In this document: positions 1 to 14,002 of the stretch, in pieces
How positions within the stretch are numbered: position 1 is the first letter of the stretch
Layout: the number at the start of each line of letters is the position of its first letter
Origin: a virus
Lineage: Duplodnaviria > Heunggongvirae > Uroviricota > Caudoviricetes
DNA: 14,002 bases
IMG/VR virus record: IMGVR_UViG_3300029828_000052
Coordinates: 1-14,002 of that record
Direction: 5' to 3' (one strand)
Notes under the pieces: model-generated
The model's database searches: none
Told to the model about the DNA's origin: nothing
What the model saw: the letters and a program-made list of their open reading frames with translations, nothing else
Translations under genes and position numbers: made by a program

Positions 1-2340
1 CTGGCATCGAAGTCTATGGCTTTCCCCAGCTCAACGATTGTGCGTACATCGCGATCGTTGTAGTAACGCCACGGGCAGGGGATCCCCTGCCGTTCGTATG
101 AACGGCGCAAAATCGTGTTGTCGAAGTTGGCTCCATTCCCCCAGACCTGGACAAAAAATTCACCGGAGTTTTCATCTATAAATTCCCGCAATTGCAGTAG
201 CGCATCATCTAACGGGATTTCATCGGTCAGAATGGCAGATTGCGCCTCGCGTGATTGCTTGAGCCACCATTTAATGGTGTCACGATCAATGACTCCGCCA
301 GTAGTTTCCAGATCGATGGTCTTGCTAAATTCCGGTCCCATATCTCCGGTTTGCGGATCGAAAAATATTGCACCTATTGAGATAATCGGGGCATCAGGAT
401 TTTTTCCCATGGTTTCGAGGTCGATCATTAGATGGTCATACGTCCTGCTGGTGGATGTGATTTCGTGATGACCGTTCACCTTAATTGAGTGATCTGCCGC
501 CTCGCCAGTTTCATTATCGCTGGCGTGGTCCTGAGCGCTGCCAGCATTCTCCTTGAGTGGATGTTCAGCGCCTGCCATTTCCTCCGGATCATTTTCCTGA
601 ACTTCAACCTGATTCTCTTCATCGAATGTTTCCTGGTATGTTGCGTCGCCCATCACCGCGCCACAATCAGGGCAGTTGCCGTCGCCGGTCTGACCGCAGG
701 CGGTGCAGACTTTTTCCGCTTCCTGTTGCGCTACTGGCGCAGGTTGTTTCGTTTCTGGCTCGTTTTGTAACGCATTTGAGCTGTTTTGTTCCTCTTTCTG
801 GTCGTTCTGTTCCGTTTCTTGCTGGTTCTGGTTCACAGAATCGCGGGTTTCAATCCCCTTCACCCATTTCGGATCATTCGGGTCGCTAATCCCTGCAACA
901 AATTCACCGCGAGAGGCCGCAAGCAACTTATCGGCGTCAGGCTGGCTGATATTGGCTGCTTGCATAATTTTGTTTACTTCGTCAGCGGTAACTTTTACCT
1001 GATTAACTGGATCTATCTGTGCCTGAGCATCCAGCGATTGCGTGTCCTGGCGATGTTCAGTTGTATCCGGTTCCATTGTTTCAGCCGTTGCCTGTTCATC
1101 TGCCATTGCGTCAGACGGTTGTGATTTTTCCTCATTATTTTTTTCTTCTTCTGTTTCGCGTTCAGCAGCCAGTTCGCGGTTAACTTCTTCCAGGATATCT
1201 TTTTCCGGTGTATGTCGTGCAGCAGCGAGAGTTTCCTCGGAAGGGTTCTCGTGATCAGTCTCTGTTAAATAGGCGTTGATATACCCCTGAAGACGTCCCG
1301 GGTAATGATAAAACTCAGGGTGTGCGCTCCGGATAAGTGCAAAAATAGCGGCGCGGGAATAATCCAGGATACCCGGGATTGCGCGAAGTGCCGCGGACCA
1401 TTCTTTGAACGGACTTTCTTTCTTCCGGACGATTTCTTTTGCGCGACGATAAATGCTGCCCGGAATTTCATAAATATTAAAATCCATCGGAAGTGTGGCC
1501 GCTGCAATCTCCACATCCAGCGTATCGAAGGTGTGTACTAAATTCGGATTGCGATCGGTTTTGTTCCCTCCACCGGCATTAGCACCGGAAGCCGTGCGGG
1601 TGATGCGTGAAACACGATTTCCTTTCATCCACTCTTTTGTCAGCAGACCGCGATCGGTGTAGTCAGCGCCCAGGTATGCTTCGAAAAAAGCAGTCATCAG
1701 TCCCAGATCTGAATTACCAGGATTAGGGAAAACTTTGTCAGTGTCACGAACCAGTTTGTGGAGATCGCGAATTTCCAGCGGTTCGAGTTGCGCTGCTTTA
1801 TTTGAGATGGCCAGCGCGGTAACGGCGGGAAGTTTTTCATCCTGTGCGTTATGTAATGCGCGTAGTTCGCCCCGCGAAACGTGTGTGATCGGTTTTTCGC
1901 TGCCGTGCTGTGCCAGCCATCGAACAGGCAGAATCTGACCTGAAACCGGCAGGAGCATATTCTCCTCAATCTCAGTCATGTCTTCGCCGTTGACGTTGGT
2001 ATTGTCAGTGCTGGCTGGTTTATCCTGAACAGAGGGCGAGGGCGCGATAAGTACCATTGTGATACCATCTTCCCCGCCTTTTTCGTATCGGTTGCAGAAT
2101 TCGGTATCAAACACGCCTTCCGGAGGAAGGTCATTCACAACGGGTAAATGGACGCGAACAGGTTTTTTAAAATCCTCTTCGTCAAATCCTGCATCGTCCA
2201 TTGCGACAACACCGCGTGATATTGCAAGCGATAGTTTTTTTGCTGTGCGCCAGTAAAAACCGCCTTTAATCCCAAGACGTTTTCTGACTTTGTCATTTTT
2301 GGCTTCGTAATATAGTGCAATTTCTTCTTTATCAGTGCTC
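1..2340 (-). CDS. recE: Exodeoxyribonuclease VIII (RecE-family) protein, 3'-truncated by window edge; Cys4 motif and DnaQ-like DEDD exonuclease motifs near the window edge
   Basis: My own translation from ATG at 2340-2338 runs 780 codons to position 1 with no stop; the ORF track lists no minus-strand ORF in this frame, consistent with an open frame leaving the window. GAGG lies 8 nt upstream and an in-frame stop 8 codons upstream. Translation contains stretches I recognise as RecE-like ([50 protein letters not shown]), then [16 protein letters not shown], then MIDLETMG and VWGNGANFD. Confidence 0.7.
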
Positions 2341-2419
2341 ATTGATAAACCTCATTACAGATTTAAGGGTGAACAAATCCCTGCCATTGCTGGCATATAA
2401 AAATGAAACCGGATATTTA

Positions 2420-2623
2420 TTACGGTGCTGGTTTAAGTCCTGCCGGGATTTCGTTATTGTCCATGTGAATAACTTTATCAACCGGATAACAGTTACCGGG
2501 AATTTTCTGTTCTGCTGCGGCAGCCATGCATTCTTTCATCGAACCGTAAATGTCAATAACCAGGTCAACAGGCTCGCCAGTGTTAAGAAAAACAGTCAGA
2601 GTGAGGGCAACAGCAGTATTCAT
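2420..2623 (-). CDS. Small protein (67 aa), YdfD-like position downstream of dicB
   Basis: Internal ATG (2623-2621) of ORF 2420..2677; ATGA start/stop overlap with dicB gives translational coupling; AGGA upstream. Identity as YdfD is by position only. Confidence 0.5.
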   Translation of the reverse strand: MNTAVALTLTVFLNTGEPVDLVIDIYGSMKECMAAAAEQKIPGNCYPVDKVIHMDNNEIPAGLKPAP

Positions 2624-2808
2624 TGCCAGTATCCTTTTTGCATCAGACGTAAACGGGCCAGCATTGAAACAATGCATATTTTATTTAATAGCTCCCGTTC
2701 TTGTTTTCTCTTGTTAATGGCATCTTCAGTAAATACAGGGTTACTGATAGTGACACCAATTTCAAAACAACCTTCAGACGTATTAACGTTTGGTAATAAC
2801 GTTTTCAT
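2620..2808 (-). CDS. dicB: Cell division inhibitor DicB (62 aa)
   Basis: Internal ATG (2808-2806) of ORF 2620..2904 preceded by AGGA; the 62-aa product MKTLLPNVNTSEGCFEIGVTISNPVFTEDAINKRKQERELLNKICIVSMLARLRLMQKGYWQ matches my recollection of DicB in size and sequence; lies about 180 bp downstream of the DicF-like sRNA as in the Qin dicB operon. Confidence 0.8.
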   Translation of the reverse strand: MKTLLPNVNTSEGCFEIGVTISNPVFTEDAINKRKQERELLNKICIVSMLARLRLMQKGYWQ

Positions 2809-2991
2809 TATCGCGTCCTCAACAATGAATTTTGTGATGCAGTGCCTGGTGCCTCCAGGTGACGTTAACCAGTTAACAATTAACGCCGGATACAGAGAAC
2901 CCACCCATAAGAACCAATACGGAAGTCAACTGGCCTTTTTAACTGTTCCGCGTGCGCTGAGCCGCATTCACCGCATCACAAAATTCACTTT

Positions 2992-3050
2992 AAAAAGGGC
3001 GGACATCAGCCAGCAATGAAAACTGATGCCGCCAAAAGGTAATCAACATG
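2992..3050 (-). ncRNA. dicF: DicF-like small RNA with intrinsic terminator (boundaries approximate)
   Basis: Minus strand reads ...UUGAUUACCUUUUGGCGGCAUCAGUUUUCAUUGCUGGCUGAUGUCCGCCCUUUUU. It shares the UUUGGCGG(U/C)AUCAGUUUU core and the GCCGCCCUUUUU-type terminator with DicF as I recall it, and sits immediately upstream of dicB. Confidence 0.6.
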
Positions 3051-3281
3051 GGTTGTTGCAGCTGATTGCCACAACCGGAAGCGCACGGACGAAGATGCCG
3101 GCGGCACGCAACAGAGGGAGAAATAACTTCGCCGTGCGCTTTCGTGTTGTGCCCTGGCTTTTCAGGGATATATCCTTTCAGTAAACTGTCAGTGCCGGAT
3201 TCTTATCCGTGTCCGGCGCACGACCACACGTGGCAGCGTGTTGGTCTCCATTTTTAACCCAGAACCTCAATGGAGGATAAA

Positions 3282-3491
3282 ATGCCAAACAGACCAATAC
3301 ATCCGCTTATTGAAAAACAGATTGAATGTCTGGTTAATCAACTCAGGCAATCAGGGTTATTAAAAACTCATTCAGAGTTAAGACTCACGGAATCAGCATT
3401 TGACGATAAATTAAATAATGCGCTTTATAATGGCATCATTGATTACAATCGTGGTGCTGGTCGCCGTGGCCCTGCTGGTACTGCTTTGTAA
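3282..3491 (+). CDS. Hypothetical small protein (69 aa), convergent with the 212-aa gene
   Basis: ATG at 3282 with GGAGG 5 nt upstream (the ORF track start at 3270 lies inside that SD). Only ORF in a 440-bp stretch. Stops back-to-back with the opposing gene (TAATTA at 3489-3494). No recognisable family. Confidence 0.4.
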   Translation: MPNRPIHPLIEKQIECLVNQLRQSGLLKTHSELRLTESAFDDKLNNALYNGIIDYNRGAGRRGPAGTAL

Positions 3492-4130
3492 TTACCAGTT
3501 AATCCAGAGCGGATAGTGTTCAGCATAAATATAGCTATACACATCCAGGTTGTATTTGTGGTCTGTCCTTAGCAGGTCGCAAATACACGCCGCAGCTTCC
3601 AGGGAAGCGGCTTTGTTGCTGAATAACCATGTAGCAACATTCCAGCGATTATCTTTATCCCACTCTTTTGCGAGAGCTGACACCACGAAGGAGCCGTTGG
3701 TGTTGCCATCAAATACTTCCGTTTCCAGATTTTTAAGTAATGCCTGGTGAATTTTTGCCAGGTATTCAGTCGGAATTTCGCCACGAATTCGGATAAGGTT
3801 GTCATAAACAAACATGTTTCCCGCATATGGCGATTTTTCTTCCTTGTTTTTTAAACCAGCATCATGAGCAAACTGATCAATTTCTTCTTCCGTTGGTTTT
3901 GTATTGATGTTTTGCGCTGTCGCTTCTGCAATTTTCTTTGCCACATTCTCTGGGTCGTGTTTATTTACAGACGCACAGAAATACAATCCGGTAAACGCAT
4001 CGCGCACATTACGAACCATATTATCGATGGCTTCTTTTTCTACGGTACTCAGGTCAAGAGTCGCCAGTTGGGAACGAACTATATTCGCTGCCGTTTCCTG
4101 GAATTGCATTGGTAAATCTTTAAATTCCAT
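3492..4130 (-). CDS. Hypothetical protein (212 aa), no recognisable family; part of an apparent insertion between the ydfC-like gene and DicF
   Basis: Complete ORF in the track; start lies 22 nt downstream of the ydfC-like stop with a GAGG-type SD; translation looks protein-like, not low-complexity. Confidence 0.75.
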   Translation of the reverse strand: MEFKDLPMQFQETAANIVRSQLATLDLSTVEKEAIDNMVRNVRDAFTGLYFCASVNKHDPENVAKKIAEATAQNINTKPTEEEIDQFAHDAGLKNKEEKSPYAGNMFVYDNLIRIRGEIPTEYLAKIHQALLKNLETEVFDGNTNGSFVVSALAKEWDKDNRWNVATWLFSNKAASLEAAACICDLLRTDHKYNLDVYSYIYAEHYPLWINW

Positions 4131-4152
4131 TATTAACCTCGTTGGTTAGCTA

Positions 4153-4371
4153 TTAACGCGGGTATGTAATCATTCTGGCAATGCTTAATGCCGCTGCTTT
4201 TTCCAGCCTGGTGATATCCTGCTCCAGAGCGGACAGATTTTCAGCCTGCTTAGCCCTGGCTTCATTGGCCCATTTCAGATCCTGCGCTGCATTAATTTTC
4301 TGGCGCATCCACTCATAAAGTTCATCATCGGTATAGTCTGGCGCGATGATGACGGGTTCTCGTTTCTGCAT
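4153..4371 (-). CDS. YdfC-like small protein (72 aa)
   Basis: Complete ORF with GAGGA SD; position and size match ydfC of the dicB operon. Confidence 0.7.
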   Translation of the reverse strand: MQKREPVIIAPDYTDDELYEWMRQKINAAQDLKWANEARAKQAENLSALEQDITRLEKAAALSIARMITYPR

Positions 4372-4401
4372 ACTGAATTCCTCGCGGTGATGTTTCGCTT
4401 A

Positions 4402-4530
4402 TCAGCCGTTATATTTTGCCGAACTGGAAAGCGCCTGTTTAAATTCGTTGAAGCTGAGAGCTTCTTCGCCTTCGGCAAGGCCTTCGAAGTATTCTTCGTA
4501 AGCCTTTTCCATGATTGTGTCGAAATCCAT
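4402..4530 (-). CDS. YdfB/YdaG-like small protein (42 aa)
   Basis: My own translation (below the ORF-track size cutoff): MDFDTIMEKAYEEYFEGLAEGEEALSFNEFKQALSSSAKYNG. ATG sits 1 nt after the upstream gene's stop; AGGTGAG SD. Confidence 0.6.
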   Translation of the reverse strand: MDFDTIMEKAYEEYFEGLAEGEEALSFNEFKQALSSSAKYNG

Positions 4531-4531
4531 A

Positions 4532-4687
4532 TCACTCACCTGAGTTTCTTTCCAGCCAGCGACGCGCGCCAGATTCGGTTTTAAACATTTTGCTTTTGGT
4601 ATACGTCATCGCGGTGAACGTGCCGTCCTGGTTTGGGAACACGCCGCATACCAGAGATTCGTTGTTACCAAGATCGATAGTATCCAT
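4532..4687 (-). CDS. YdfA/YdaF-like small protein (51 aa)
   Basis: Internal ATG (4687-4685) of ORF 4532..4780 with GAGG SD: MDTIDLGNNESLVCGVFPNQDGTFTAMTYTKSKMFKTESGARRWLERNSGE. The 31-codon upstream extension runs through the operator sequence and is not used. Confidence 0.65.
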   Translation of the reverse strand: MDTIDLGNNESLVCGVFPNQDGTFTAMTYTKSKMFKTESGARRWLERNSGE

Positions 4688-4765
4688 ATTGACCTCATTT
4701 CCCCTTAACGCCGGGGTAGCGGAACTGTTTGCTGAGAACACCGTGCGGTGTCTTGATGGGTGGTA

Positions 4766-4877
4766 ATTTAGTTTTCTCATGAATTCTGGTCAAGTATTTT
4801 TAATGAGAAAACTCAACATTTAATGCAAAATAAAGCCAATACATTGAAATGTAAGGCTTTAAAATTTGTGAAGGGGG
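4766..4877. promoter_or_regulatory. Leftward early promoter/operator region (PL/OL-like) with two operator-like palindromes
   Basis: AT-rich intergenic region between repressor stop and first early-left gene. TGAGAAAACTCA at 4804-4815 and imperfect copy TTTAGTTTTCTCAT at 4768-4781, centres about 34 bp apart; same motif as the operator at 5336-5349. Confidence 0.5.
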
Positions 4878-5285
4878 TTACTGATGTTTGTTACGTTTGC
4901 GAGCTTCTAGTAGCTCGGTGAATAGGCGATTAAAATTCTCAACGCGGGCACGGAGTTCGCTGATTTGTGCTTGCTGCTCTGATTTTGGAAGTGCGCGATA
5001 CAATCGCAACATCTCCAACTCATCTTCCGATAAGTCTAAGGCGCTGTTGAGTGCAACTGGTGGATCTGGTGTTTTATCCTCGTCACCAAACAGTATCCAA
5101 GTTGGTGAACATTGCAATACCTCAGCCAGGCGATGCAAATTTTGCCCGCGCGGGGCTGTATGGTCGCTTTCCCATAGTGAAATTGATGAGCCAGATACGC
5201 CAGCAGCTTTGCTTAAATCGTTTTGACTTAAACCAACCTGTTTGCGTCTTTCTCTAATTCGTTGACCTAAAGTTTTCTCGTTCAT
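4878..5285 (-). CDS. dicA: HTH XRE-family prophage repressor, DicA-like (135 aa)
   Basis: Complete ORF; N-terminal HTH (LSQNDLSKAAGVSGSSISLWE); VLQCSPTWILFGDEDK and ARVENFNRLFTELLEARKR match my recollection of DicA; divergent from a cro-like gene. No obvious SD, so possibly leaderless. Confidence 0.9.
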   Translation of the reverse strand: MNEKTLGQRIRERRKQVGLSQNDLSKAAGVSGSSISLWESDHTAPRGQNLHRLAEVLQCSPTWILFGDEDKTPDPPVALNSALDLSEDELEMLRLYRALPKSEQQAQISELRARVENFNRLFTELLEARKRNKHQ

Positions 5286-5362
5286 ATTTAGATATCTTAA
5301 TAACCCTTGACTTGAGATTCCTTGAGTGATTACTATTGAGAAAACTCAACTTTGGAGGGGTG
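5286..5362. promoter_or_regulatory. Divergent promoter/operator region (PR/OR-like)
   Basis: -35 TTGACT (5307-5312), 18-nt spacer, -10 TACTAT (5331-5336); perfect palindrome TTGAGAAAACTCAA (5336-5349) overlapping the -10 and +1; CTTGAG half-sites at 5311-5316 and 5321-5326; GGAGGGG SD at 5354-5360. Confidence 0.6.
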
Positions 5363-5590
5363 ATGTTTAAATCAGACGTAATTAATTTTTATGGGACGAA
5401 AGCCAAAGTAGCGAAAGCTGCTGGTGTTGATCCATCTGCTGTTTCTCAATGGGGGGAATTGGTTCCTGAAGGTCGCGCGATGCGCCTGCAAGAGGCATCC
5501 GGCGGGGAACTTCAGTACGACCCCAAAGTTTATGACGAATATCGTAAGGCAAAGCGGGCGGGGCGGTTGAACAATGAAAATCACCCCTGA
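5363..5590 (+). CDS. dicC: Cro-like regulator, DicC/YdaS family (75 aa)
   Basis: ATG at 5363 sits 3 nt after the GGAGGGG SD; the track start at 5336 is a TTG inside the operator. Small basic protein divergent from the repressor gene. Confidence 0.75.
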   Translation: MFKSDVINFYGTKAKVAKAAGVDPSAVSQWGELVPEGRAMRLQEASGGELQYDPKVYDEYRKAKRAGRLNNENHP

Positions 5591-6125
5591 ACAGGTTTGT
5601 GAGGCTCTGGATGCCTGGGTATGCCGACCAGGAATGACACAGGAGCAGGCGACGATATTAATCACGGAAGCATTCTGGGCTCTGAAAGAACGCCCGAACA
5701 TCGATGTTCAACGCGTCACGTTTAATGATGGCGAGGTTGATCAACGGGCGCTGGGCGTTAACCGGGTGAAGATATTCGAACGCTGGAAAGCTATCGACAC
5801 CAGGGATAAGCGGAAAAAATTCACGGCGCTGATTCCGGCAATTATGGAGGCTATCCGAATTAGTGATTTCAGGTTGTATCGTGAGATCAGTGATGGAAAA
5901 AGCATTACGTACATGATCGCCGGATTAAACAAAGAATATGGCGATGTGGTGGAGTCTGGGCTGCTTTTTGCGGATCCATCTGTTGTGGAACGTGAGACTG
6001 ACGAGCTTATAGAAAAAGCTATTGCTTTCAAGCATGCGTATCGTCAGCAATATCAATATTACTTTGCAGATAAACAAATGTCTGCCAGGGGTTCGTATGA
6101 GTATCGATGCACTACGATGGGCTAA
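5574..6125 (+). CDS. YdaT-like (CII-like) regulatory protein (183 aa)
   Basis: Complete ORF overlapping the cro-like gene by 17 nt; second gene after cro; contains ALIPAIMEAI, resembling what I recall of Rac YdaT. Confidence 0.7.
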   Translation: MKITPEQVCEALDAWVCRPGMTQEQATILITEAFWALKERPNIDVQRVTFNDGEVDQRALGVNRVKIFERWKAIDTRDKRKKFTALIPAIMEAIRISDFRLYREISDGKSITYMIAGLNKEYGDVVESGLLFADPSVVERETDELIEKAIAFKHAYRQQYQYYFADKQMSARGSYEYRCTTMG

Positions 6126-7137
6126 AAAGGTGAAAACCGGCAGTTCATCCAGTAAGTCTGTATTGACCTGGCTTGCTGATATGTGCGGTGCCGATTTGTG
6201 TGCATACCCGTCTGTATCTGCACTGGCAGAAGTAACGGAACTGAACAAAAAGACTGTGCAGGACAGCTTACGACACCTGATGGAGATTGGGTTAATTGTT
6301 GATACCGGTGAGAGAAAAGGCAAAACAAAGCAAATTGTGGTGTACCGACTTATCGGTGTAGAAGAAAGTGTTGCCGAGCCTGAATACACCCAAAAACGGG
6401 AGTCTTTAAAGGTGGGTAAAATTGGTGCTGTTAATAAAAACAGTACCGAAAATGGTTATGTTTCAGCACAAAACAGACCCAAAAACGGAACTCTTAGCTG
6501 CATGGAAAATAACCAAAGACACCCAAATTTTCCATCAAAGACACCCAAAAACGGATCACGGAACCCAAAGGAACCCAAAGATCTAAACCCCACACATAAC
6601 GCACGCGAGAGTGCTCCGACCAGTGAGCAGGAGGTTTTGTCGTTACAGGCAGCCCCCCCTGTATTCCTGGATGGCCTGAGCGAACCCATCGGAAAATTCC
6701 CGATGAGCGATAGCTGGTATCCGTCACGGGATTTTCGACGACGGGCTGCGTTGTGGGGGATGGCTTTGCCGGAGACAGAATTTACACCTGCTGAACTTGC
6801 CGCCTTCCGGGACTACTGGGCAGCGGAGGGTAAAGTTTTCACGCAGGTTCAGTGGGAGCAGAAATTCGCCCGTCACGTAAATCACGTCAGGGCGCAGGCT
6901 AAACCAGTCAGCAAGGGGGTAAACCATGCAGCAGCACCAGGTGGCACCGCATCACGGGCAGTTCAGGAAATTCGGGCAGCACGTGAGCAGTGGGAACGTG
7001 AAAACGGATTTATCAACGACGGAAACTGCCTGGAAGCTGTGGGAACTCATGGGGGAGGTTTATTCGAACCGCTGGACCCAGAAGAACGGGGCCGCACCTT
7101 CGAAGCTCTGGATTGCACAGATTGGCGCGATGACTGA
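6097..7137 (+). CDS. Replication initiation protein, O-like (N-terminal HTH, low-complexity linker, DnaT-like C-terminal region)
   Basis: ATG at 6097 with AGGGG SD (track start 6022 is further upstream). N-terminus MSIDALRWAKK...SVSALAEVTELNKKTVQDSLRHLMEIGLI is HTH-like; linker NRPKNGTLSCMENNQRHPNFPSKTPKNGSRNPKEPK coincides with the iteron-like repeats; C-terminal DSWYPSRDF...FRDYWAAEGKVFTQVQWEQKFARHV. The last ~70 codons overlap the P-like ORF. Confidence 0.75.
   Translation: MSIDALRWAKKVKTGSSSSKSVLTWLADMCGADLCAYPSVSALAEVTELNKKTVQDSLRHLMEIGLIVDTGERKGKTKQIVVYRLIGVEESVAEPEYTQKRESLKVGKIGAVNKNSTENGYVSAQNRPKNGTLSCMENNQRHPNFPSKTPKNGSRNPKEPKDLNPTHNARESAPTSEQEVLSLQAAPPVFLDGLSEPIGKFPMSDSWYPSRDFRRRAALWGMALPETEFTPAELAAFRDYWAAEGKVFTQVQWEQKFARHVNHVRAQAKPVSKGVNHAAAPGGTASRAVQEIRAAREQWERENGFINDGNCLEAVGTHGGGLFEPLDPEERGRTFEALDCTDWRDD
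6475..6580. repeat. Iteron-like direct repeats inside the O-like gene linker (candidate origin)
   Basis: AGACCCAAAAACGGAAC (6475-6491), AGACACCCAAATTTTCC (6517-6533), AGACACCCAAAAACGGATC (6539-6557), tandem GAACCCAAAG x2 (6561-6580); 21-22 bp phasing. Confidence 0.45.
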
Positions 7138-7591
7138 GCAGCAAATCCGGCAGGTCTGCCGCCAGTGCATGGACCGTTGCAGGGCAGGTGAAACATGGCC
7201 TCCGGACCTGGCTGAGTTTGTGGCGCTGATTTCGGAGAGCGGGGCAAATCCATTTGGTCTGACGGTGGATAACGTGATGGAGGAGTACCGACGCTGGCGC
7301 AACGAGTCCTGGCGATACGACGGAAGCGATAAATACCCGTGGTCTCAGCCTGTGCTGTATCACATTTGTCTCGAGATGCGTTCCAAGGGGATTGAGCGCC
7401 AGATGACCGAAGGGGAGTTAAAACGGCTTGCAGAACGGCAACTGGCGAAATGGGCAAAGCATGTTGGTAACGGACTGAGTGTTCCACCCGTCCGTAGGCA
7501 ACTGGCAGCACCCATACGTCCTGCGGGACCAACGCCAATTGAGTTGCTGAAACAGGAATATGAACGCAGGAAAGCGGCAGGTTTTGTTTGA
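6926..7591 (+). CDS. Replication protein P-like helicase loader (221 aa from ATG 6926; alternative starts 7049 or 7130)
   Basis: WPPDLAEFVALI and DKYPWSQPVLYHICLEMR resemble lambda P (GQFVAWC, SYPWKSNAHYWLV) as I recall it. ATG 6926 has a strong SD (AAGGGGG, 6-nt spacing) but overlaps the O-like ORF by 212 nt. Confidence 0.7.
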   Translation: MQQHQVAPHHGQFRKFGQHVSSGNVKTDLSTTETAWKLWELMGEVYSNRWTQKNGAAPSKLWIAQIGAMTEQQIRQVCRQCMDRCRAGETWPPDLAEFVALISESGANPFGLTVDNVMEEYRRWRNESWRYDGSDKYPWSQPVLYHICLEMRSKGIERQMTEGELKRLAERQLAKWAKHVGNGLSVPPVRRQLAAPIRPAGPTPIELLKQEYERRKAAGFV

Positions 7592-7620
7592 GTTGATAAG
7601 TAATTTTACCGGGAGGGTTT

Positions 7621-8016
7621 ATGGCGAAACCTTTTACACCCGAACAGCGGGAAGAGCTGAAGGCACGAATTATCGGATTGGTACGCAAAAATGGACGCAT
7701 GACGATGTCGCAACTGGAGAGAGCGACGGGAGCTGGCTGGCATTCGGTCCGGCGCTGCCTTGTGGATGTACTGGCTTGTGGTGATTTATACATGTCCGGG
7801 GAATACGGTGTTTTTGCATCAGAGCAGGCGTATCGTGAATGGCGTAAGACACCGGAGAAAACAACTGACCAGACACTGATTCGAAAGTTACCAGACGGAG
7901 AAATACGCCGCTACGACAGACACCTGAACATAATCTGTCGCGAGTGCCGGAAGAGTGAGGTTATGCAGCGAGTGCTGGCGTTTTATCAGGGGAAATTTCA
8001 GGAGGTGATGCTGTGA
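7621..8016 (+). CDS. Hypothetical protein (131 aa)
   Basis: Complete ORF; GGGAGGG SD just upstream of ATG; 4-nt overlap with the next gene. Confidence 0.7.
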   Translation: MAKPFTPEQREELKARIIGLVRKNGRMTMSQLERATGAGWHSVRRCLVDVLACGDLYMSGEYGVFASEQAYREWRKTPEKTTDQTLIRKLPDGEIRRYDRHLNIICRECRKSEVMQRVLAFYQGKFQEVML

Positions 8017-8279
8017 GCGAATCAAAATGTCAGGTTAATGGCAATCAGATAGAACCATGTGCGGCACTGGCAAAAGCCCTTGAGCATGATGCTGAATACA
8101 CGATGCGAAAAGGTCTGCTGATATACAAAATCTGGAATGAGAATTTAACTCGCGCCCCTGATTTGGTGATGTTGCGTTCCGGTAAATTTTCTAAATCACC
8201 TATTCGAGTCTCATTTTGCCCGTTCTGTGGTGAAAGTCTGAAAACATGGAAAAAGGAGACAACCAGTGAGCAGGATTGA
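8013..8279 (+). CDS. Hypothetical protein (88 aa), Cys-containing (CPFCG)
   Basis: GTG start at 8013 with AGGAGGT SD 6 nt upstream; GTGA overlap with the upstream gene. Confidence 0.65.
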   Translation: MSESKCQVNGNQIEPCAALAKALEHDAEYTMRKGLLIYKIWNENLTRAPDLVMLRSGKFSKSPIRVSFCPFCGESLKTWKKETTSEQD

Positions 8280-8862
8280 CTATCAGGCACTGCGTGGGGC
8301 GGCAGAAGCAATAAAAATAGCAGCCACACCACAAAAATTGCTGGCATTTCGTATGAAAGTCACACCTCAGGTTGTGCTGGCTCTACTGGATGAACGAGAT
8401 GCATTAAATGAACGCCTAGCCGAACTGGAGGCTGATTTAGCAGGGCTGGCCGAAGACCAACAGAAATCGATTGAGTCAATTAAGCAGGCTGATGAAGCTG
8501 TTAAGTTGGCACACGAGAAGTTTTCGGCGCTTGCGGCGGAGAATGAGCTGGCTCGTAAGGCAGTTCAGGCATTCTGCGATGTTGTTGGCGACAACACCGA
8601 GGTTATCGCTGAGGTGGTTGGGCGAGATAGCGTTCTGGTTATTTTGGAGGACATGAAGGCAACAGGAAATATGCCAGCCACCGATGCTTTTCTGGCTGAA
8701 GTACGGGCGCAGGGCGTGGAGATGCTGGCAAAAAATCATCAGAGTATCGTCAATGCACTTAAGGGAGATTCTTTATTTTCTGATGGTGAATACCGACATG
8801 CAGCTATTGTTTCCGCAGCTGTATATTTCGCTGCAGAGCTTCGCAAAGGAGGCAACCAGTGA
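8266..8862 (+). CDS. ead/Ea22-like family protein (198 aa)
   Basis: GTG start with AGGAG SD; N-terminal IDYQALRGAAEA and LLDERDALNERLAELEA are typical of Ea22-like proteins; paralog of the next gene. Confidence 0.75.
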   Translation: MSRIDYQALRGAAEAIKIAATPQKLLAFRMKVTPQVVLALLDERDALNERLAELEADLAGLAEDQQKSIESIKQADEAVKLAHEKFSALAAENELARKAVQAFCDVVGDNTEVIAEVVGRDSVLVILEDMKATGNMPATDAFLAEVRAQGVEMLAKNHQSIVNALKGDSLFSDGEYRHAAIVSAAVYFAAELRKGGNQ

Positions 8863-9467
8863 GAAAAATTAATTATCAGGCGCTACGTGATGCGGCAGAA
8901 AAGGCAACACAGGGTGAATGGGTCGCATTTATTTCGCCGGGCAAATACGGCACGTACGCCGTGCACACACCAGGAGATAATCATCACGGAGATATTGTCG
9001 ACTGGCCTGGATTCGACGGACAGAAAAACGCAGAGAACAACGCTCGTTATATCGCAGCTTTCAACCCTGAAGTAGTGCAGGCGCTGTTGGATGAACGAGA
9101 AGCCCAAAGCAAACGCATTGCAGAGCTGGAGGCTAATTTCACGGTGCTGGCAGTGGAGAATGTTGGAATAAAGTCTGCAATCCCAGAGCCACGGGATATT
9201 GAGGATGACAATGACAATATGGATGACGTCTCTCTTGCTGAAGACTTCGGATTCAATCATGCAATAGAATGGATGAGGAGACGGATTGAAACTCCAGCCA
9301 CCGACGCTTTCCTGGCGGATGTGCGGGCTGGGGCGTTTAACGACCTTTGCGCGGCGTTTGTCAGGCACGCAAAAGTTGCAGGACTGGATGATGCCGATAC
9401 CGTAACGCTTAAGGAAGTGACAGAAGTATTGTTGCATTGTGCGGAACAGATTCGCGCGCCTGAATAA
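8859..9467 (+). CDS. ead/Ea22-like family protein (202 aa), tandem paralog
   Basis: GTG start in GTGA overlap with the upstream paralog; shares INYQALRDAAEKA, LLDEREAQSKRIAELEA and PATDAFLADVRAG with it. Confidence 0.75.
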   Translation: MRKINYQALRDAAEKATQGEWVAFISPGKYGTYAVHTPGDNHHGDIVDWPGFDGQKNAENNARYIAAFNPEVVQALLDEREAQSKRIAELEANFTVLAVENVGIKSAIPEPRDIEDDNDNMDDVSLAEDFGFNHAIEWMRRRIETPATDAFLADVRAGAFNDLCAAFVRHAKVAGLDDADTVTLKEVTEVLLHCAEQIRAPE

Positions 9468-9562
9468 TTAAATTTAGTGTTGTAAATAAAATTTAATCCT
9501 TAACCGGAGGGATTTCTGCACCCTCAGAACATCAGGAGGCCGCCCGAAAGGGCGGTAATGAA

Positions 9563-9745
9563 ATGCGAAAGTTCAAAATAATTATTGAAACGGGAATAGC
9601 TGGTGGAGATTTTGAAGATGTATTCGAAGTGGATGATGATGCGACACCAGATGAAATAAAGGACGAAGCAAAAGAAATTTTCTTTAACTACTGCAATTAC
9701 TCATATCACGAAATAAAAGACGAGGAGGAAGAACAAAATGGCTGA
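9563..9745 (+). CDS. Small highly acidic protein (60 aa)
   Basis: Complete ORF; very D/E-rich; AGGAGG lies about 30 nt upstream, separated from the ATG by a GCCGCCC-GAAA-GGGCGG hairpin. Confidence 0.55.
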   Translation: MRKFKIIIETGIAGGDFEDVFEVDDDATPDEIKDEAKEIFFNYCNYSYHEIKDEEEEQNG

Positions 9746-9914
9746 TTTTGGTTCAACTAAATATAACGCCAGTTTTGAAGAATGGCATGAACTGTTAATG
9801 GATTATGCAGAGTTACGCGGTGGAAGTGCCGCTGATGCTGAAGCATGGCGTGATGATTATGAAGCAGGAAAAACTCCGGTCGAAGCATATTGTGATGAGT
9901 GGGGCGATGAATGA
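9738..9914 (+). CDS. Small acidic protein (58 aa)
   Basis: My own translation (below track cutoff): MADFGSTKYNASFEEWHELLMDYAELRGGSAADAEAWRDDYEAGKTPVEAYCDEWGDE. ATGGCTGA overlap with the upstream gene; GAGGAGG SD. Confidence 0.5.
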   Translation: MADFGSTKYNASFEEWHELLMDYAELRGGSAADAEAWRDDYEAGKTPVEAYCDEWGDE

Positions 9915-9935
9915 ACCACCACAAGAGGGGGCATA

Positions 9936-10112
9936 ATGAAAATGCGGATGGGAAATTGTTTATTGCCGTATCTGGTGCGGTTTGGGGCGTCGTCATTAAC
10001 AGTTATTCCACATGTCATGATGGTTGACAATATTATCCCGGCACCGAAGCGCCGTACCGGTATTGCAGCGGCACGACGTGCAGCAAAGAAACGCAGGAGA
10101 GCAAAACGATGA
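9936..10112 (+). CDS. Small protein (58 aa) with hydrophobic N-terminus and Arg/Lys-rich C-terminus
   Basis: My own translation: MKMRMGNCLLPYLVRFGASSLTVIPHVMMVDNIIPAPKRRTGIAAARRAAKKRRRAKR. AGAGGGGG SD 5 nt upstream; ATGA overlap with the next ORF. Confidence 0.4.
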   Translation: MKMRMGNCLLPYLVRFGASSLTVIPHVMMVDNIIPAPKRRTGIAAARRAAKKRRRAKR

Positions 10113-10297
10113 AAAACCGTAAAGCAAAAATTCTGTTAGCTCGCAGAAACGGTCCTGGCGTCTGGCAGTGGGTGAGACTCAGCAACCGACGAATGGGGTT
10201 GATGAAATATTACGGGATGATGGATTGTGGTTTTTGCAAAAAGCCCAGCGCGGCGCAAAACCGCTGGAAAAACCACTTGCGCACTAAAGGAGAGTGA
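10109..10297 (+). CDS. Small basic protein (62 aa)
   Basis: Complete ORF; GGAGAG SD; translationally coupled to neighbours on both sides. Confidence 0.5.
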   Translation: MKNRKAKILLARRNGPGVWQWVRLSNRRMGLMKYYGMMDCGFCKKPSAAQNRWKNHLRTKGE

Positions 10298-10298
10298 T

Positions 10299-10814
10299 AT
10301 GGCGTTAACACACCGCGAACTCTGTCAGATTGCGTATAAGTTCCTTAAGCGCAACGGGTTCAAGGTTTGTTTTCATGACCGCTTTATAGCTGTAACCAGT
10401 ACCGGAGAACAGCCAGATGCTATGGGATTCAGAAATTCAGCATCATGCCTGATAGAGGCGAAATGTTCTCGTGCTGACTTGTTGGCAGATAGAAAAAAGC
10501 GTTTTCGTAAAAATCCGTCTCTTGGAATGGGCGACTGGCGATTCTTTATTAGTGAGCCGGGAATTATTTCAGTTGAGGATTTACCACCTGGCTGGGGATT
10601 ACTTCACGTTGTTAACGGAAGAGTACGGAAAGTACATGGGTGGCCCAAGGGGAATTGCTGTTGGGGTAACCCTGAAGATAAACCTTTTATTGGGAATAAG
10701 CAGGTTGAATGCGATTACATGTTATCTGCATTAAGGCGCATGGAGTTGAGAGGGCACCTTAATGAAATATATGACGGCGTAATTGTTAATAAGAAAGAAG
10801 GAAACGCGGCATGA
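10299..10814 (+). CDS. Hypothetical protein (171 aa) with PD-(D/E)XK nuclease-like motif
   Basis: ATG at 10299 with AAGGAG SD 6 nt upstream (the track start at 10227 overlaps the previous gene). GEQPDAMGF followed by CLIEAKCS fits a PD...ExK signature. Confidence 0.65.
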   Translation: MALTHRELCQIAYKFLKRNGFKVCFHDRFIAVTSTGEQPDAMGFRNSASCLIEAKCSRADLLADRKKRFRKNPSLGMGDWRFFISEPGIISVEDLPPGWGLLHVVNGRVRKVHGWPKGNCCWGNPEDKPFIGNKQVECDYMLSALRRMELRGHLNEIYDGVIVNKKEGNAA

Positions 10815-11317
10815 CCACTATTACCAAAGAGCGACTACTGACAATCAAGCAGTGGCGCGAAACATACGGACCTGGTAGCAACGTTATACTGCCAGCAGAA
10901 GAAGCGGAAGAACTGGCACGGATTGCACTGGCATCACTGGAAGCAGAGCCGGTGGTTTACATGTGGGATAGCGAAAGAAAAGATATTGATGCCCCCGGGT
11001 ATTATCGGGCTGAGCATTTAGTGTTCGCTGAGAGTAGTGTTAAGCAATGGGGAGGGCGAGTTGTTCCACTTTACACCGCCCCGCCAGCGACGGTAGTGCC
11101 GGAATTTGAAACATGGTTTAACAGCCAGGAGCCAGGGAGGAGTATATGCAGCACACAGATTCGTCGCTCCCTTCAGGAAATCTCATGGAACGCCTGCTGC
11201 GCCGCTCCCTTCAGGAAATCTCATGGAACGCCTGCTGCGCCGCCATGCTTCAGGGGAAAGGCGATGGTATCCTCACCAATGAGGATACCAAAGGGGACGT
11301 TCAGGTACGGGAATTAA
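10811..11317 (+). CDS. Hypothetical protein, C-terminus frameshifted by a 38-bp tandem duplication (possible pseudogene)
   Basis: ATGA overlap with the upstream gene; protein-like up to the repeat at about 11165, then an aberrant tail (PFRKSHGTPAAPPCFRGKAMVSSPMRIPKGTFRYGN). Confidence 0.55.
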   Translation: MTTITKERLLTIKQWRETYGPGSNVILPAEEAEELARIALASLEAEPVVYMWDSERKDIDAPGYYRAEHLVFAESSVKQWGGRVVPLYTAPPATVVPEFETWFNSQEPGRSICSTQIRRSLQEISWNACCAAPFRKSHGTPAAPPCFRGKAMVSSPMRIPKGTFRYGN

Positions 11318-11442
11318 CAATGCTGATTAAACAACTGGCTAGCCAATTGAGGAAAGCGAAGCCGAACTGCAAATTACCGGAGAAGGCGATGGTCTACCTG
11401 AAGCGAAACGGACTGATAAGCGCGGAGGATATTTTACGATGA
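11146..11442 (+). CDS. ORF carrying the displaced C-terminal part of the upstream gene (98 aa from ATG 11146)
   Basis: ATG at 11146 with GGGAGGAG SD; after the duplication the frame reads a protein-like tail (GILTNEDTKGDVQVRELTMLIKQLASQLRKAK...). Removing one repeat copy fuses it in-frame to 10811. Confidence 0.4.
   Translation: MQHTDSSLPSGNLMERLLRRSLQEISWNACCAAMLQGKGDGILTNEDTKGDVQVRELTMLIKQLASQLRKAKPNCKLPEKAMVYLKRNGLISAEDILR
11165..11243. repeat. Perfect 38-bp tandem direct duplication (2 copies) inside coding sequence
   Basis: GCTCCCTTCAGGAAATCTCATGGAACGCCTGCTGCGCC at 11166-11203 and again at 11204-11241, checked base by base; period-38 identity spans 11165-11243. Confidence 0.95.
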
Positions 11443-11522
11443 CCTGGCCTGAAGCATTCACAACGGTAGGAATTGCGATGGCGGTGGCGCTGGTGGTGTA
11501 TTCGATTTGCCGCTGGGGATAA
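11439..11522 (+). CDS. Putative small hydrophobic peptide (27 aa)
   Basis: My own translation: MTWPEAFTTVGIAMAVALVVYSICRWG. ATGA overlap with the stop of 11146..11442; GGAGG about 10 nt upstream. Speculative. Confidence 0.3.
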   Translation: MTWPEAFTTVGIAMAVALVVYSICRWG

Positions 11523-11674
11523 AAACGGTTTGCGGGAAAAGGAGAGTTAAGTAGAATTGCTGCGGGTGCTTGAGGCTATCTGCCTCAGGCATGAACACCA
11601 AAAGGCAGATAGAGAAAAGCCCCAGTTAACATTACGCGTCCTGCAAGACGCTTAACATTAATCTGAGGCTCCCT

Positions 11675-11887
11675 ATGCATGACAACATCAGGTTAGCCTC
11701 TTACGTGCCGAAAGGCAAGGAGAAGCAGGCTATGAAGCAGCAAAAGGCGATGTTAATCGCCCTGATCGTCATCTGTTTAACCGTCATAGTGACGGCACTG
11801 GTAACGAGGAAAGACCTCTGCGAGGTACGAATCCGAACCGGCCAGACGGAGGTCGCTGTCTTCACAGCTTACGAACCTGAGGAGTAA
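11675..11887 (+). CDS. Mok-like reading frame (in-frame N-terminal extension of hok, 70 aa)
   Basis: Complete 70-aa ORF that contains Hok; this architecture matches the annotated chromosomal mok/hok pairs as I recall them. Confidence 0.5.
   Translation: MHDNIRLASYVPKGKEKQAMKQQKAMLIALIVICLTVIVTALVTRKDLCEVRIRTGQTEVAVFTAYEPEE
11732..11887 (+). CDS. hokD: Hok/Gef-family type I toxin (51 aa), HokD-like
   Basis: MKQQKAMLIALIVICLTVIVTALVTRKDLCEVRIRTGQTEVAVFTAYEPEE: single transmembrane helix and conserved C-terminus typical of Hok; followed by a 3' stem-loop and an intrinsic terminator. Confidence 0.85.
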   Translation: MKQQKAMLIALIVICLTVIVTALVTRKDLCEVRIRTGQTEVAVFTAYEPEE

Positions 11888-11955
11888 GAGACCAGGCGAG
11901 GGAGAAATCCCTCGCCACCTCTGATGTGTCAGGCATCCTCAATGCACCCGCACTT

Positions 11956-11980
11956 AACCCGCTTCGGCGGGTTTATTTTA
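11956..11980 (+). terminator. Rho-independent terminator downstream of hok
   Basis: ACCCGC-TTCG-GCGGGT stem-loop followed by TTATTTTAT. Confidence 0.7.
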
Positions 11981-12345
11981 TCTGTAAATATTTTTATAAA
12001 AATAATGCCCACACACAGCATAAAACAAAAAGTATCACAGATAAAAAAGGAGCGTAATGTGCAGATTTGTTGTTTTCCATATTTACTCACTTTAACATAA
12101 TCAATATTGATATGGTTGTTGTTTTGGTGGTTTCAAACGAGATGTTATGGTGATCTGGTAAAATTGCATAACATTAAAATTTAATTTATCTAATCGCTTT
12201 TAATAATAAGCGTTGTGTTTATCCCAACAATCTGTTGTTTGACTTTTATTCCATTAATGTAGGGGCTTTACACTGGAACCAGTTTATTTATACTTTATAC
12301 GCCAGCCTGAACAACTGGCACCTGCTGCGCCAGCAGAGACAACCG

Positions 12346-12624
12346 ATGGCGCACGATACCAAATTACACAATTCTGATGATTCTGCCGTCTTTGCCAGCA
12401 GGTGCGGACGGCGTTTTCATGCATTCAAATCGGACTGGTTCCAGCATCCACCATGCACTGAAGAGCAGGCTGAATGGATAATTCAGTGTTACCGCAGGCG
12501 CGGATACGAGGTTAAAAAAGCCCTTAGCCTCGACTACCGTCACTGGATAATCTCCGTCAGGCTTCCTTACTCCGAACGCCCACCGCGTCCGTCCCGCACA
12601 TTCCAGCAACGCATCTGGAGGTAA
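12346..12624 (+). CDS. Hypothetical protein (92 aa), Rem-like position between hok and the DUF968 gene
   Basis: ATG at 12346 inside ORF 12235..12624 (track start is a TTG in the AT-rich region); weak SD; stop 1 nt before the next gene's GTG. Confidence 0.5.
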   Translation: MAHDTKLHNSDDSAVFASRCGRRFHAFKSDWFQHPPCTEEQAEWIIQCYRRRGYEVKKALSLDYRHWIISVRLPYSERPPRPSRTFQQRIWR

Positions 12625-12625
12625 C

Positions 12626-13675
12626 GTGCGGGTATTACTTCGACCTGTTCTGGTACCGGAACTCGGGCTGGTGATAGTTAAGCCGGGCCGTGAATCCATG
12701 CCGGTATTCCACAATACCCGGGTACTGGTGGAGCCGGAACCGAAAAGCATGCGTAATCTGCCGTCCGGGGTCGTTCCTGCCGTTCGCCAGCCGCTGGCGG
12801 AGGATAAATCATTACTGCCATTTTTCAGCGACGAACGAGTGATTCGTGCTGCTGGTGGCGCTGGCGCATTGTCTGACTGGTTACTGCGCCATGTTAAATC
12901 CTGCCAGTGGCCACACGGCGATTATCACCATAGTGAAACCGTCATTCACCGTTATGGTACCGGCGCAATGGTGTTGTGCTGGCACTGCGACAACCAGTTG
13001 CGTGACCAGACCTCCGAATCACTTGAGCAACTTGCTCACCAAAACTTGTCAGCATGGATGATTGACGTCATTCGTCACGCAATGAATGGCACACAGGAGC
13101 GGGAATTATCGCTGGCTGAATTATCCTGGTGGGCGGTCCGCAATCAGGTGGCGGACGCGCTACCGGAGGCGGTATTACGTCGTTCGCTGGGGTTGCGTGC
13201 GGAAAAAATCCGCTCAATGTACCGTGAAAGCGACATCGTACCGGGAGAGCAGACCGCCACCAGCATACTGAAACAGCGCACAAAAAATCTTGCGCCGCTG
13301 CCTCACGCCCACCAGCAACAGAACCCACCACAGGAAAAGACGGTGGTCAGCATTGCCGTTGATCCTGAGTCTCCGGAATCTTTCATGAAACGACCTAAAC
13401 GTCGCCGCTGGGTTAACGAGAAATACACACGCTGGGTGAAGACACAGCCGTGTGCGTGTTGTGGTAAGCCAGCCGACGATCCCCATCACCTGATTGGTCA
13501 TGGTCAGGGCGGAATGGGGACAAAATCTCACGATATTTTCACGCTACCGCTGTGTCGGGAGCATCACAACGAGCTTCATGCGGATCCGCTGGCGTTCGAA
13601 GAAAAGCATGGTTCTCAGGTTGATTTAATTTTTCGTTTTCTTGATCACGCCTTTGCAACTGGCGTGCTTGGGTAA
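12626..13675 (+). CDS. DUF968 domain protein, YdfU-like (349 aa), with Cys/His HNH-like motif
   Basis: GTG start with GGAGG SD; C-terminal CACCGKPADDPHHLIGHGQGG...CREHHNELH; sits immediately upstream of rusA as in Qin-type prophages. Confidence 0.85.
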   Translation: MRVLLRPVLVPELGLVIVKPGRESMPVFHNTRVLVEPEPKSMRNLPSGVVPAVRQPLAEDKSLLPFFSDERVIRAAGGAGALSDWLLRHVKSCQWPHGDYHHSETVIHRYGTGAMVLCWHCDNQLRDQTSESLEQLAHQNLSAWMIDVIRHAMNGTQERELSLAELSWWAVRNQVADALPEAVLRRSLGLRAEKIRSMYRESDIVPGEQTATSILKQRTKNLAPLPHAHQQQNPPQEKTVVSIAVDPESPESFMKRPKRRRWVNEKYTRWVKTQPCACCGKPADDPHHLIGHGQGGMGTKSHDIFTLPLCREHHNELHADPLAFEEKHGSQVDLIFRFLDHAFATGVLG

Positions 13676-13687
13676 AAGAGGTGACTG

Positions 13688-14002
13688 ATGCTCATAGATT
13701 TGGTTTTACCTTACCCGCCGACGGTGAACACTTACTGGCGACGCCGTGGCAGCACATATTTTATCTCGGAGGAGGGAAAGCGTTATCGCCGGGCTGTGGT
13801 GCTTATTGTTCGCCAGCAGCGGCTGAAATTAAGCCTGTCCGGAAGGCTGGCGATAAAGGTGATTGCAGAGCCACCGGATAAGCGCCGCCGCGACCTGGAC
13901 AATATCCTGAAGGCACCACTGGATGCGCTGACGCATGCCGGACTACTTATAGACGACGAGCAGTTTGATGAAATCAATATTGTGCGCGGTCAGGTCGTTC
14001 CT
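13688..14002 (+). CDS. rusA: Holliday junction resolvase RusA, 3'-truncated by window edge
   Basis: My own translation from ATG 13688 (AAGAGG SD): MLIDLVLPYPPTVNTYWRRRG...PDKRRRDLDNILKAPLDALTHAG, matching the RusA signature (PDRRRRDLDN..K...DAL); open to the window end. Confidence 0.9.
   Translation, partial: MLIDLVLPYPPTVNTYWRRRGSTYFISEEGKRYRRAVVLIVRQQRLKLSLSGRLAIKVIAEPPDKRRRDLDNILKAPLDALTHAGLLIDDEQFDEINIVRGQVVP

Follow-up and report, generated by a model that had tools for sequence, protein, structure and literature searches.

Accessory proteins of the PHROG 660 and Ead/Ea22-like type, such as N15 gp45, ST64B Sb32 and pPE4 gp23, are encoded in the early region of lambdoid phages; no member of the family has a known function, and PHROG 660 itself is annotated as a phage family of unknown function. 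The PHROG 660 family is strongly modular: its N-terminal modules, which include a DUF551-type version, swap between members and are attached to the C-terminal part via the conserved linkers ASLEAEP and WNACCAAMLQ. In distant phages (N15 gp45, ST64B Sb32, ArgO145 gp10 and H19J orf688) conservation is confined to the last ~45 residues. Among close relatives from complete genomes, the gene is mostly situated directly upstream of hok.

Changes in repeat number that alter a reading frame are known from several other settings. Contingency loci, in which simple sequence repeats bring about phase variation, carry many copies of units of 1-9 nt, with the copy number varying within clones. In E. coli, slipped-misalignment and template-switch duplications have been studied with plasmid assays, and direct repeats of less than 200 bp were found to be substrates of RecA-independent template switching, which gives rise to both deletions and expansions (PMC7145654). 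Reading frames can also be altered during translation, and one case is the programmed -1 frameshift of the lambda G/GT genes, in which the heptamer G_GGA_AAG supports ~4% frameshifting, with the 0 frame retained in ~96% of cases (PMC3296357). For E. coli, PMC5009743 characterizes the same heptamer as highly shift-prone. In lambda this site is conserved, lies in register in the wild-type gene and fixes the ratio of G to GT.

The locus considered here lies in a caudoviricete sequence of 14,002 nucleotides (positions 1 to 14,002 of IMG/VR record IMGVR_UViG_3300029828_000052), the whole of which is termed the window below. The window represents the early region of a Rac/Qin-like lambdoid prophage. 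Rightward of the repressor it encodes Cro-like, YdaT-like, DnaT/O-like, lambda-P-like and DUF977 genes, followed by two Ead/Ea22-like genes and several small ORFs, and the order then continues with a 171-aa ORF, an interrupted gene, hok/sok and a DUF968 gene. The principal features of this neighborhood are:

4878-5285, minus strand: cI-like repressor
8266-8862 and 8859-9467: two Ead/Ea22-like genes, after DUF977
10299-10814, plus strand: ORF of 171 aa
10811-11442, plus strand: the whole interrupted gene, a PHROG 660 / Ead-Ea22-type accessory gene
11564-11737, plus strand: full-length match to Rfam sok (RF01794, 118 bits), directly downstream of the interrupted gene
11675-11887: Hok/Gef toxin ORF (hok), adjoining the sok match
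11956-11973: terminator-like hairpin

Like other PHROG 660 / Ead-Ea22-like genes, the interrupted gene thus belongs to the early-right accessory cluster and precedes hok/sok. It is taken to be read in the rightward early transcript, because its start codon and the stop codon of the preceding ORF overlap in ATGA (10811-10814). That upstream 171-aa ORF matches phrog_9263/631 (function unknown) and shows a weak match to a PHROG annotated as 'DNA repair protein' (E 0.0023), with no match in Pfam or NCBIfam; on visual impression, its AMGF and LIEAKCSRADL segments resemble a PD-(D/E)xK-type nuclease motif. At the other end of the window, an imperfect 21-bp tandem repeat (744-827, 4 copies, 65% matches) appears to fall inside a recE-like gene running off the left end, a placement that follows the Exonuc_VIII gene predicted on the minus strand of L010, a homologous 449-kb scaffold.

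The interrupted gene is distinguished by a tandem repeat with a unit of 38 bp, around which two overlapping reading frames are arranged:

10811-11317, plus strand: ORF A, 168 aa; native residues 1-132, then a 36-residue out-of-frame tail, with the stop TAA at 11315-11317
11135-11142, plus strand: Shine-Dalgarno-like GGGAGGAG, 3 nt upstream of the ORF B ATG (11146)
11146-11442, plus strand: ORF B, 98 aa; 20-residue out-of-frame leader (MQHTDSSLPSGNLMERLLRR), then native residues 120-197
11165-11202, plus strand: unit copy 1, CGCTCCCTTCAGGAAATCTCATGGAACGCCTGCTGCGC, encoding R119-SLQEISWNACCA
11203-11240, plus strand: unit copy 2, identical to copy 1
11241-11243, plus strand: CGC microhomology, which equals the start of the unit; with their flanks the endpoints read CGTCGC and CGCCGC

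Tandem Repeats Finder delineates the repeat as 11165-11243, with a period of 38, 2.1 copies, 100% matches, 0 indels and a score of 158. A script comparison showed that 11165-11202 equals 11203-11240 base for base, and that identity at period 38 stretches over 79 bases, namely the two units plus the CGC overhang. The string across the two-copy junction is CCTGCTGCGCCGCTCCCTTCAGG. A search of the window that tolerated up to 3 mismatches detected no further copy of the unit, and two matches to it arose in 0 of 200 shuffles. The perfect 38-bp tandem duplication that the original prediction had proposed from the sequence is therefore confirmed by both methods. Of the coordinates it gave, 11146-11243, the end stands, but 11146 is the ATG of ORF B and the repeat proper begins only at 11165.

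As 38 equals 3x12+2 and is not a multiple of 3, the reading frame of the gene is broken, just as that prediction had reasoned from the length of the unit. Both ORFs lie exactly where it had placed them (10811..11317 and 11146..11442), and the aberrant tail of ORF A indeed comprises 36 residues, only residues 1-132 being native. Deletion of one unit copy by script produces an uninterrupted ORF of 197 aa, in agreement with the gene of roughly 197 aa that had been anticipated; with one copy the gene would measure 594 bp. This repaired ORF is 98-99% identical to intact E. coli proteins of 197 aa (P0017-P0020) recovered in protein searches, and the intact homologues of 197/198 aa match it. ORF B includes the broadly conserved C-terminal module of ~45 aa.

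Profile searches place the repaired protein firmly in PHROG 660, with which it aligns end to end: residues 1-197 of 197 match positions 3-193 of 193 in phrog_660 (E 2.4e-48), and ORF B covers positions 125-193 only. It shares with the PHROG 660 / Ead-Ea22-like proteins the conserved C-terminal module of ~45 aa and the modular, recombining N-termini, and differs from them in that the window gene is split by a duplication and is missed by the Pfam Ead_Ea22 model. Searches with the repaired protein gave no match in Pfam, NCBIfam, PADLOC or PDB profiles. The gathering score of PF13935 (Ead/Ea22-like) was reached by neither the repaired ORF nor ORF A nor ORF B; the same model does match the two upstream genes at 8266-8862 and 8859-9467. 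Overlap with proteins annotated as Ead/Ea22-like, for example ST64B Sb32, extends over the C-terminal ~45 aa only. An AlphaFold2 model built from a 23-sequence alignment had a mean pLDDT of 43 and was unusable.

We also considered candidates for naturally split homologues. The tblastn spans covering N15 gp45/gp45.1 and ST64B Sb32/Sb31 turned out to be overlaps between adjacent genes and not splits, N15 gp45 and ST64B Sb32 each being single proteins. A free-standing C-terminal form of 86 aa (P0004, beginning MCSTQIRRSLQEISWNACC) has been recorded for 90 E. coli and Salmonella contigs; its start corresponds to Ile112, for which the codon in the window is ATA. A further observation concerns phage pPE4 (PP818812.1, L014, 'Actinobacillus phage vB_Apl-pPE4'), positions 2297-2842 of which share ~96% DNA identity with the matching part of the window's gene. 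Its recorded host is Actinobacillus pleuropneumoniae, and it carries an early region of the E. coli lambdoid type, with Ead/Ea22, PHROG 660 and hok genes, so that the host attribution of this record may be questionable.

The original prediction had suggested a comparison with homologous prophages carrying one copy, and in all close relatives examined the unit is indeed present once. Every annotated relative that was fetched (L001-L004, L007-L009, L013 and pPE4 gp23) has the unit once, in a frame that stays open for 158-207 aa; the alternative that homologues universally carry two copies thus finds no support among them. A search of 5,426 complete E. coli genomes with positions 11100-11300 as the query recovered 19 full-length matches, all 19 of which span 163 b against the 201 b of the query, and six truncated matches spanning 118 b against 156 b, likewise 38 b short. 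Hence, the two-copy state occurs in 0 of these 5,426 complete genomes. Exactly one unit is found in each of the contigs encoding intact proteins of the P0017-P0020 type (L018-L026, L032-L034), and copy 2 (or, equivalently, copy 1) is missing from every one-copy relative. Alignment of L018 and L022 with the window, L005 and L010 shows 38 gap columns that coincide exactly with 11165-11202. Furthermore, among the 101 family proteins with the motif EISWNACC in hand, ORF A of the window alone has the frameshifted continuation.

The nearest one-copy prophages come from the E. coli isolates GCA_048121465.1, GCA_048121335.1 and GCA_009729775.1. Over 3.4-10.4 kb, the one-copy isolate prophages L018-L020 share 99.93-99.94% identity with the window, with just 7 SNPs in 10.4 kb, and it is this near-identity that marks the duplication as recent.

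Besides the window, the two units and their junction are found in five contigs:

ERZ27235177 (L005): both units and junction
ERZ920237 (L006), human gut: both units and junction
ERZ28576007 (L010), 449-kb scaffold: both units and junction
ERZ1304610 (L011), seen in 3 samples: both units and junction
ERZ1304089 (L012), seen in 2 samples: both units and junction

The record names of the two-copy contigs vary in style (k119/k127-type, NODE-type, scaffold). The exact product of ORF A is on record on 5-6 metagenome contigs and that of ORF B on 3, and gene finders called ORF B as a gene on 3 ENA contigs. An exact search specific for the junction gave no match in IMG/VR viral contigs or JGI metagenome contigs. 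With a 22-mer common to both states, the matches listed were all chance matches in unrelated GC-rich genomes, such as Massilia.

The two states are accompanied by diagnostic SNPs. Position 10886 is A (Ile26) in all six two-copy sequences (the window, L005, L006, L010, L011 and L012) and G (Val26) in each one-copy sequence of the SNP table. Likewise, the three long two-copy sequences read 4444T/4447G/4448T, where the one-copy sequences have C/A/C. Within the two-copy group there are in addition private SNPs, namely 4278A and 10572A in L010 and 11797G in L005. Downstream of 11978 the window departs from the other two-copy contigs, its DUF968 gene being 89% identical and rem being absent; as judged from window segments 11979-12324 and 12325-13675, the duplication allele is thus found in at least two mosaic prophage backgrounds. 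The common SNPs, the private SNPs and the downstream divergence indicate that the duplication arose once, recently, in a near-clonal prophage lineage, and that the two-copy allele has been stably inherited since, through the accumulation of SNPs and at least one downstream recombination.

Given this pattern, we consider it very probable that the locus records a recent duplication by slippage or template switching that frameshifted an accessory gene, and that the resulting allele is heritable and neither an assembly error nor a demonstrable switch. The event would have been a single 38-bp tandem duplication within a particular sub-lineage of a Rac/Qin-like lambdoid prophage of E. coli. The left boundary of the ancestral unit reads TTCGT|CGCTCC and the right boundary CTGCGC|CGCCAT, and its endpoints share an exact CGC, with CGTCGC and CGCCGC matching at 5/6 positions. 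This endpoint pattern fits microhomology-mediated slippage or template switching; the likely mechanism would involve the CG[T/C]CGC microhomologies flanking the ancestral unit, either through slippage during replication or through RecA-independent template switching from one to the other. Two other origins were examined and set aside: ectopic recombination with a second copy of the linker, as the window is without another copy, and a DNA hairpin as driver of the duplication, as the region shows no unusual single-strand structure (z +1.28).

The window resembles the products of the E. coli plasmid assays in its head-to-tail direct repeat and endpoint microhomology, and also in that the gene has a broken frame and is exactly rebuilt when one copy is lost (PMC7145654). 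It differs from those assays in being a natural event, located in an accessory gene of a prophage and inherited across several hosts or samples. The repeats also differ in size, 38 bp in the window against 101 bp in the assays (PMC7145654), so that reversion would be expected to be rarer here.

As for the consequences, translation from the gene's own start would run from the N-terminal 132 residues into a nonsense tail of 36 residues, and the conserved C-terminal module would drop out. Inactivation, or a strong weakening, of the gene is the most likely outcome, and one that the prophage could tolerate, the gene being accessory. A recent inactivating mutation, one of the three options raised by the original prediction, is the one that fits best, with one-copy prophages so few SNPs away.

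Nevertheless, the two-copy sequence contains signals through which the displaced C-terminal part could still be expressed. The strong Shine-Dalgarno sequence and ATG that had been noted for ORF B are borne out by calculation: pairing of GGGAGGAG to the 16S rRNA tail gives -11.1 kcal/mol, which ranks in the top 3% of plus-strand ATGs in the window, whereas the site of ORF A itself is weaker at -5.7 kcal/mol. On translation of the one-copy sequence, the ATG at 11146 opens an out-of-frame ORF of only 32 codons. Because this Shine-Dalgarno sequence and ATG are invariant among the one-copy genes aligned, they appear to predate the duplication and to be a pre-existing accident, not something that evolved for the split state.

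A further candidate for leaky expression is found beyond the repeat:

11254-11260, plus strand: G_GGA_AAG, a heptamer of the canonical -1 slippery type, in register with the aberrant frame of ORF A
11265-11290, plus strand: perfect 11-bp stem with a 4-nt loop (TGGTATCCTCA-CCAA-TGAGGATACCA), beginning 4 nt past the heptamer

A -1 slip at this heptamer would re-enter the native frame, with a predicted near-full-length product of 210 aa that carries 16 residues in place of MLQ133-135. The RNA from 11261 to 11340 has a predicted folding energy of -20.6 kcal/mol (z -1.85), which is equalled in 12 of 200 shuffles. The chance expectation of a heptamer of the form X_XXA_AAG in the 38 codons concerned is 0.03, for a search that was made post hoc. 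Of the features that define a frameshift cassette, a heptamer of the form X_XXY_YYZ in the incoming frame is present, but homologues do not preserve this arrangement in register: in the one-copy gene, the native frame contains no in-register heptamer, and the register exists solely in the frame made by the duplication. The palindrome at 11265-11290 encodes a clade-specific linker, GILTNEDT, which is absent from divergent relatives, and in the relatives compared the hairpin-encoding segment (DGILTNEDTKGD) is likewise clade-specific.

The likeness to the lambda G/GT frameshift lies in an identical heptamer read by the same host translation machinery, and in that a -1 slip would here too change which C-terminus is made. 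The lambda site serves a wild-type gene, whereas in the window the heptamer is in register in the mutant frame only, and frameshifting, if it occurs, would amount to an accidental, 'compensatory' leak such as PMC5009743 discusses. Taken together, the internal start and the heptamer with its hairpin may make the two-copy allele leaky and not null.

Taken further, these signals lead to the proposal that the locus has undergone a functional gene fission, or at least persists as a leaky allele, with ORF B made from the internal start and/or a 210-aa protein made by a -1 slip of a few per cent of the ribosomes translating ORF A. It would then be a remodelled locus with up to three products: truncated ORF A, a free ORF B module and a minor 210-aa frameshift protein. 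The strength of the ORF B start speaks for this, as does the location of the sole broadly conserved segment of the protein (the last ~45 aa) entirely within ORF B, and the allele has, moreover, persisted and spread. The heptamer, improbable by chance, in register with the aberrant frame and followed by an 11-bp hairpin, adds to the case, given the efficiency of the same sequence in lambda (PMC3296357) and its shift-prone behavior in E. coli (PMC5009743). All these signals, however, pre-exist out of register in the one-copy gene, which implies that they were not selected for such a role; the heptamer emerged from a post hoc search, the segment forming the hairpin is restricted to one clade, and no naturally split homologue was found, the N15 and ST64B proteins being undivided. 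Stimulatory structures are usually spaced ~5-9 nt from the slippery site, and the 4-nt spacer seen here falls below that range. On balance we regard both the functional fission or leaky allele and its three-product form as improbable, and return to a simple frameshifting duplication as the preferred reading.

The original prediction had offered two other options, a slippage-prone switch and an assembly artefact. In a switch, slippage would alternate the locus between one and two copies, and production of the full-length protein would be turned on and off accordingly among the members of a population. RecA-independent deletion could in principle act on perfect adjacent 38-bp repeats, and the frame is exactly restored in the one-copy state; as short direct repeats are known substrates of this process (PMC7145654), rare reversion of the two-copy allele would be expected in principle. 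Rare reversion, however, would not make the locus a device, and copy number follows the linked SNPs without exception across 6 two-copy and at least 6 one-copy sequences. The protein predicted for a revertant (Ile26 with one copy) is absent from ~15 billion proteins, neither a three-copy nor any other state was observed, contigs of the two states never came from the same sample, and the complete E. coli genomes are uniformly free of two-copy alleles. The frame is shifted by a change in repeat number as in contingency loci, but in place of their many copies of short units the window has two copies of a 38-mer, fixed within its lineage; copy number does not vary among near-identical sequences as it does in phase-variable loci. 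A reversible switch is therefore very unlikely. An artefact, in which the source molecule truly has one copy, has in its favor the general ability of assembler errors to create short tandem duplications. Against it stands the identical junction in contigs of at least 5 other samples, all of them tied to the same diagnostic SNPs. The five further contigs, from independent samples and put together by different assemblers, effectively refute this option, and its probability is close to nil. The preferred reading thus remains that of a heritable duplication that frameshifted the gene.

With regard to annotation, the overlapping ORFs at 10811-11442 should be treated as one frameshifted PHROG 660 gene and not as two genes. 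Beyond this the importance of the finding is slight, for a tandem-duplication frameshift in a catalogued phage gene family is an ordinary and already known kind of event. Its value is that of a clean case from nature of a tandem duplication, probably mediated by microhomology, whose origin is traceable on the genealogy of a near-clonal prophage. It also shows that a tandem-duplication frameshift allele is able to persist and spread; the occurrence of the allele in at least 5 independent samples could also reflect neutrality or a mild advantage instead of mere tolerance. If the locus were truly remodelled, persistence across several hosts would reflect a retained or altered function and not neutral decay, and if leaky expression does occur, the locus would serve as a modest example from nature of both compensatory frameshifting and duplication-driven gene fission.
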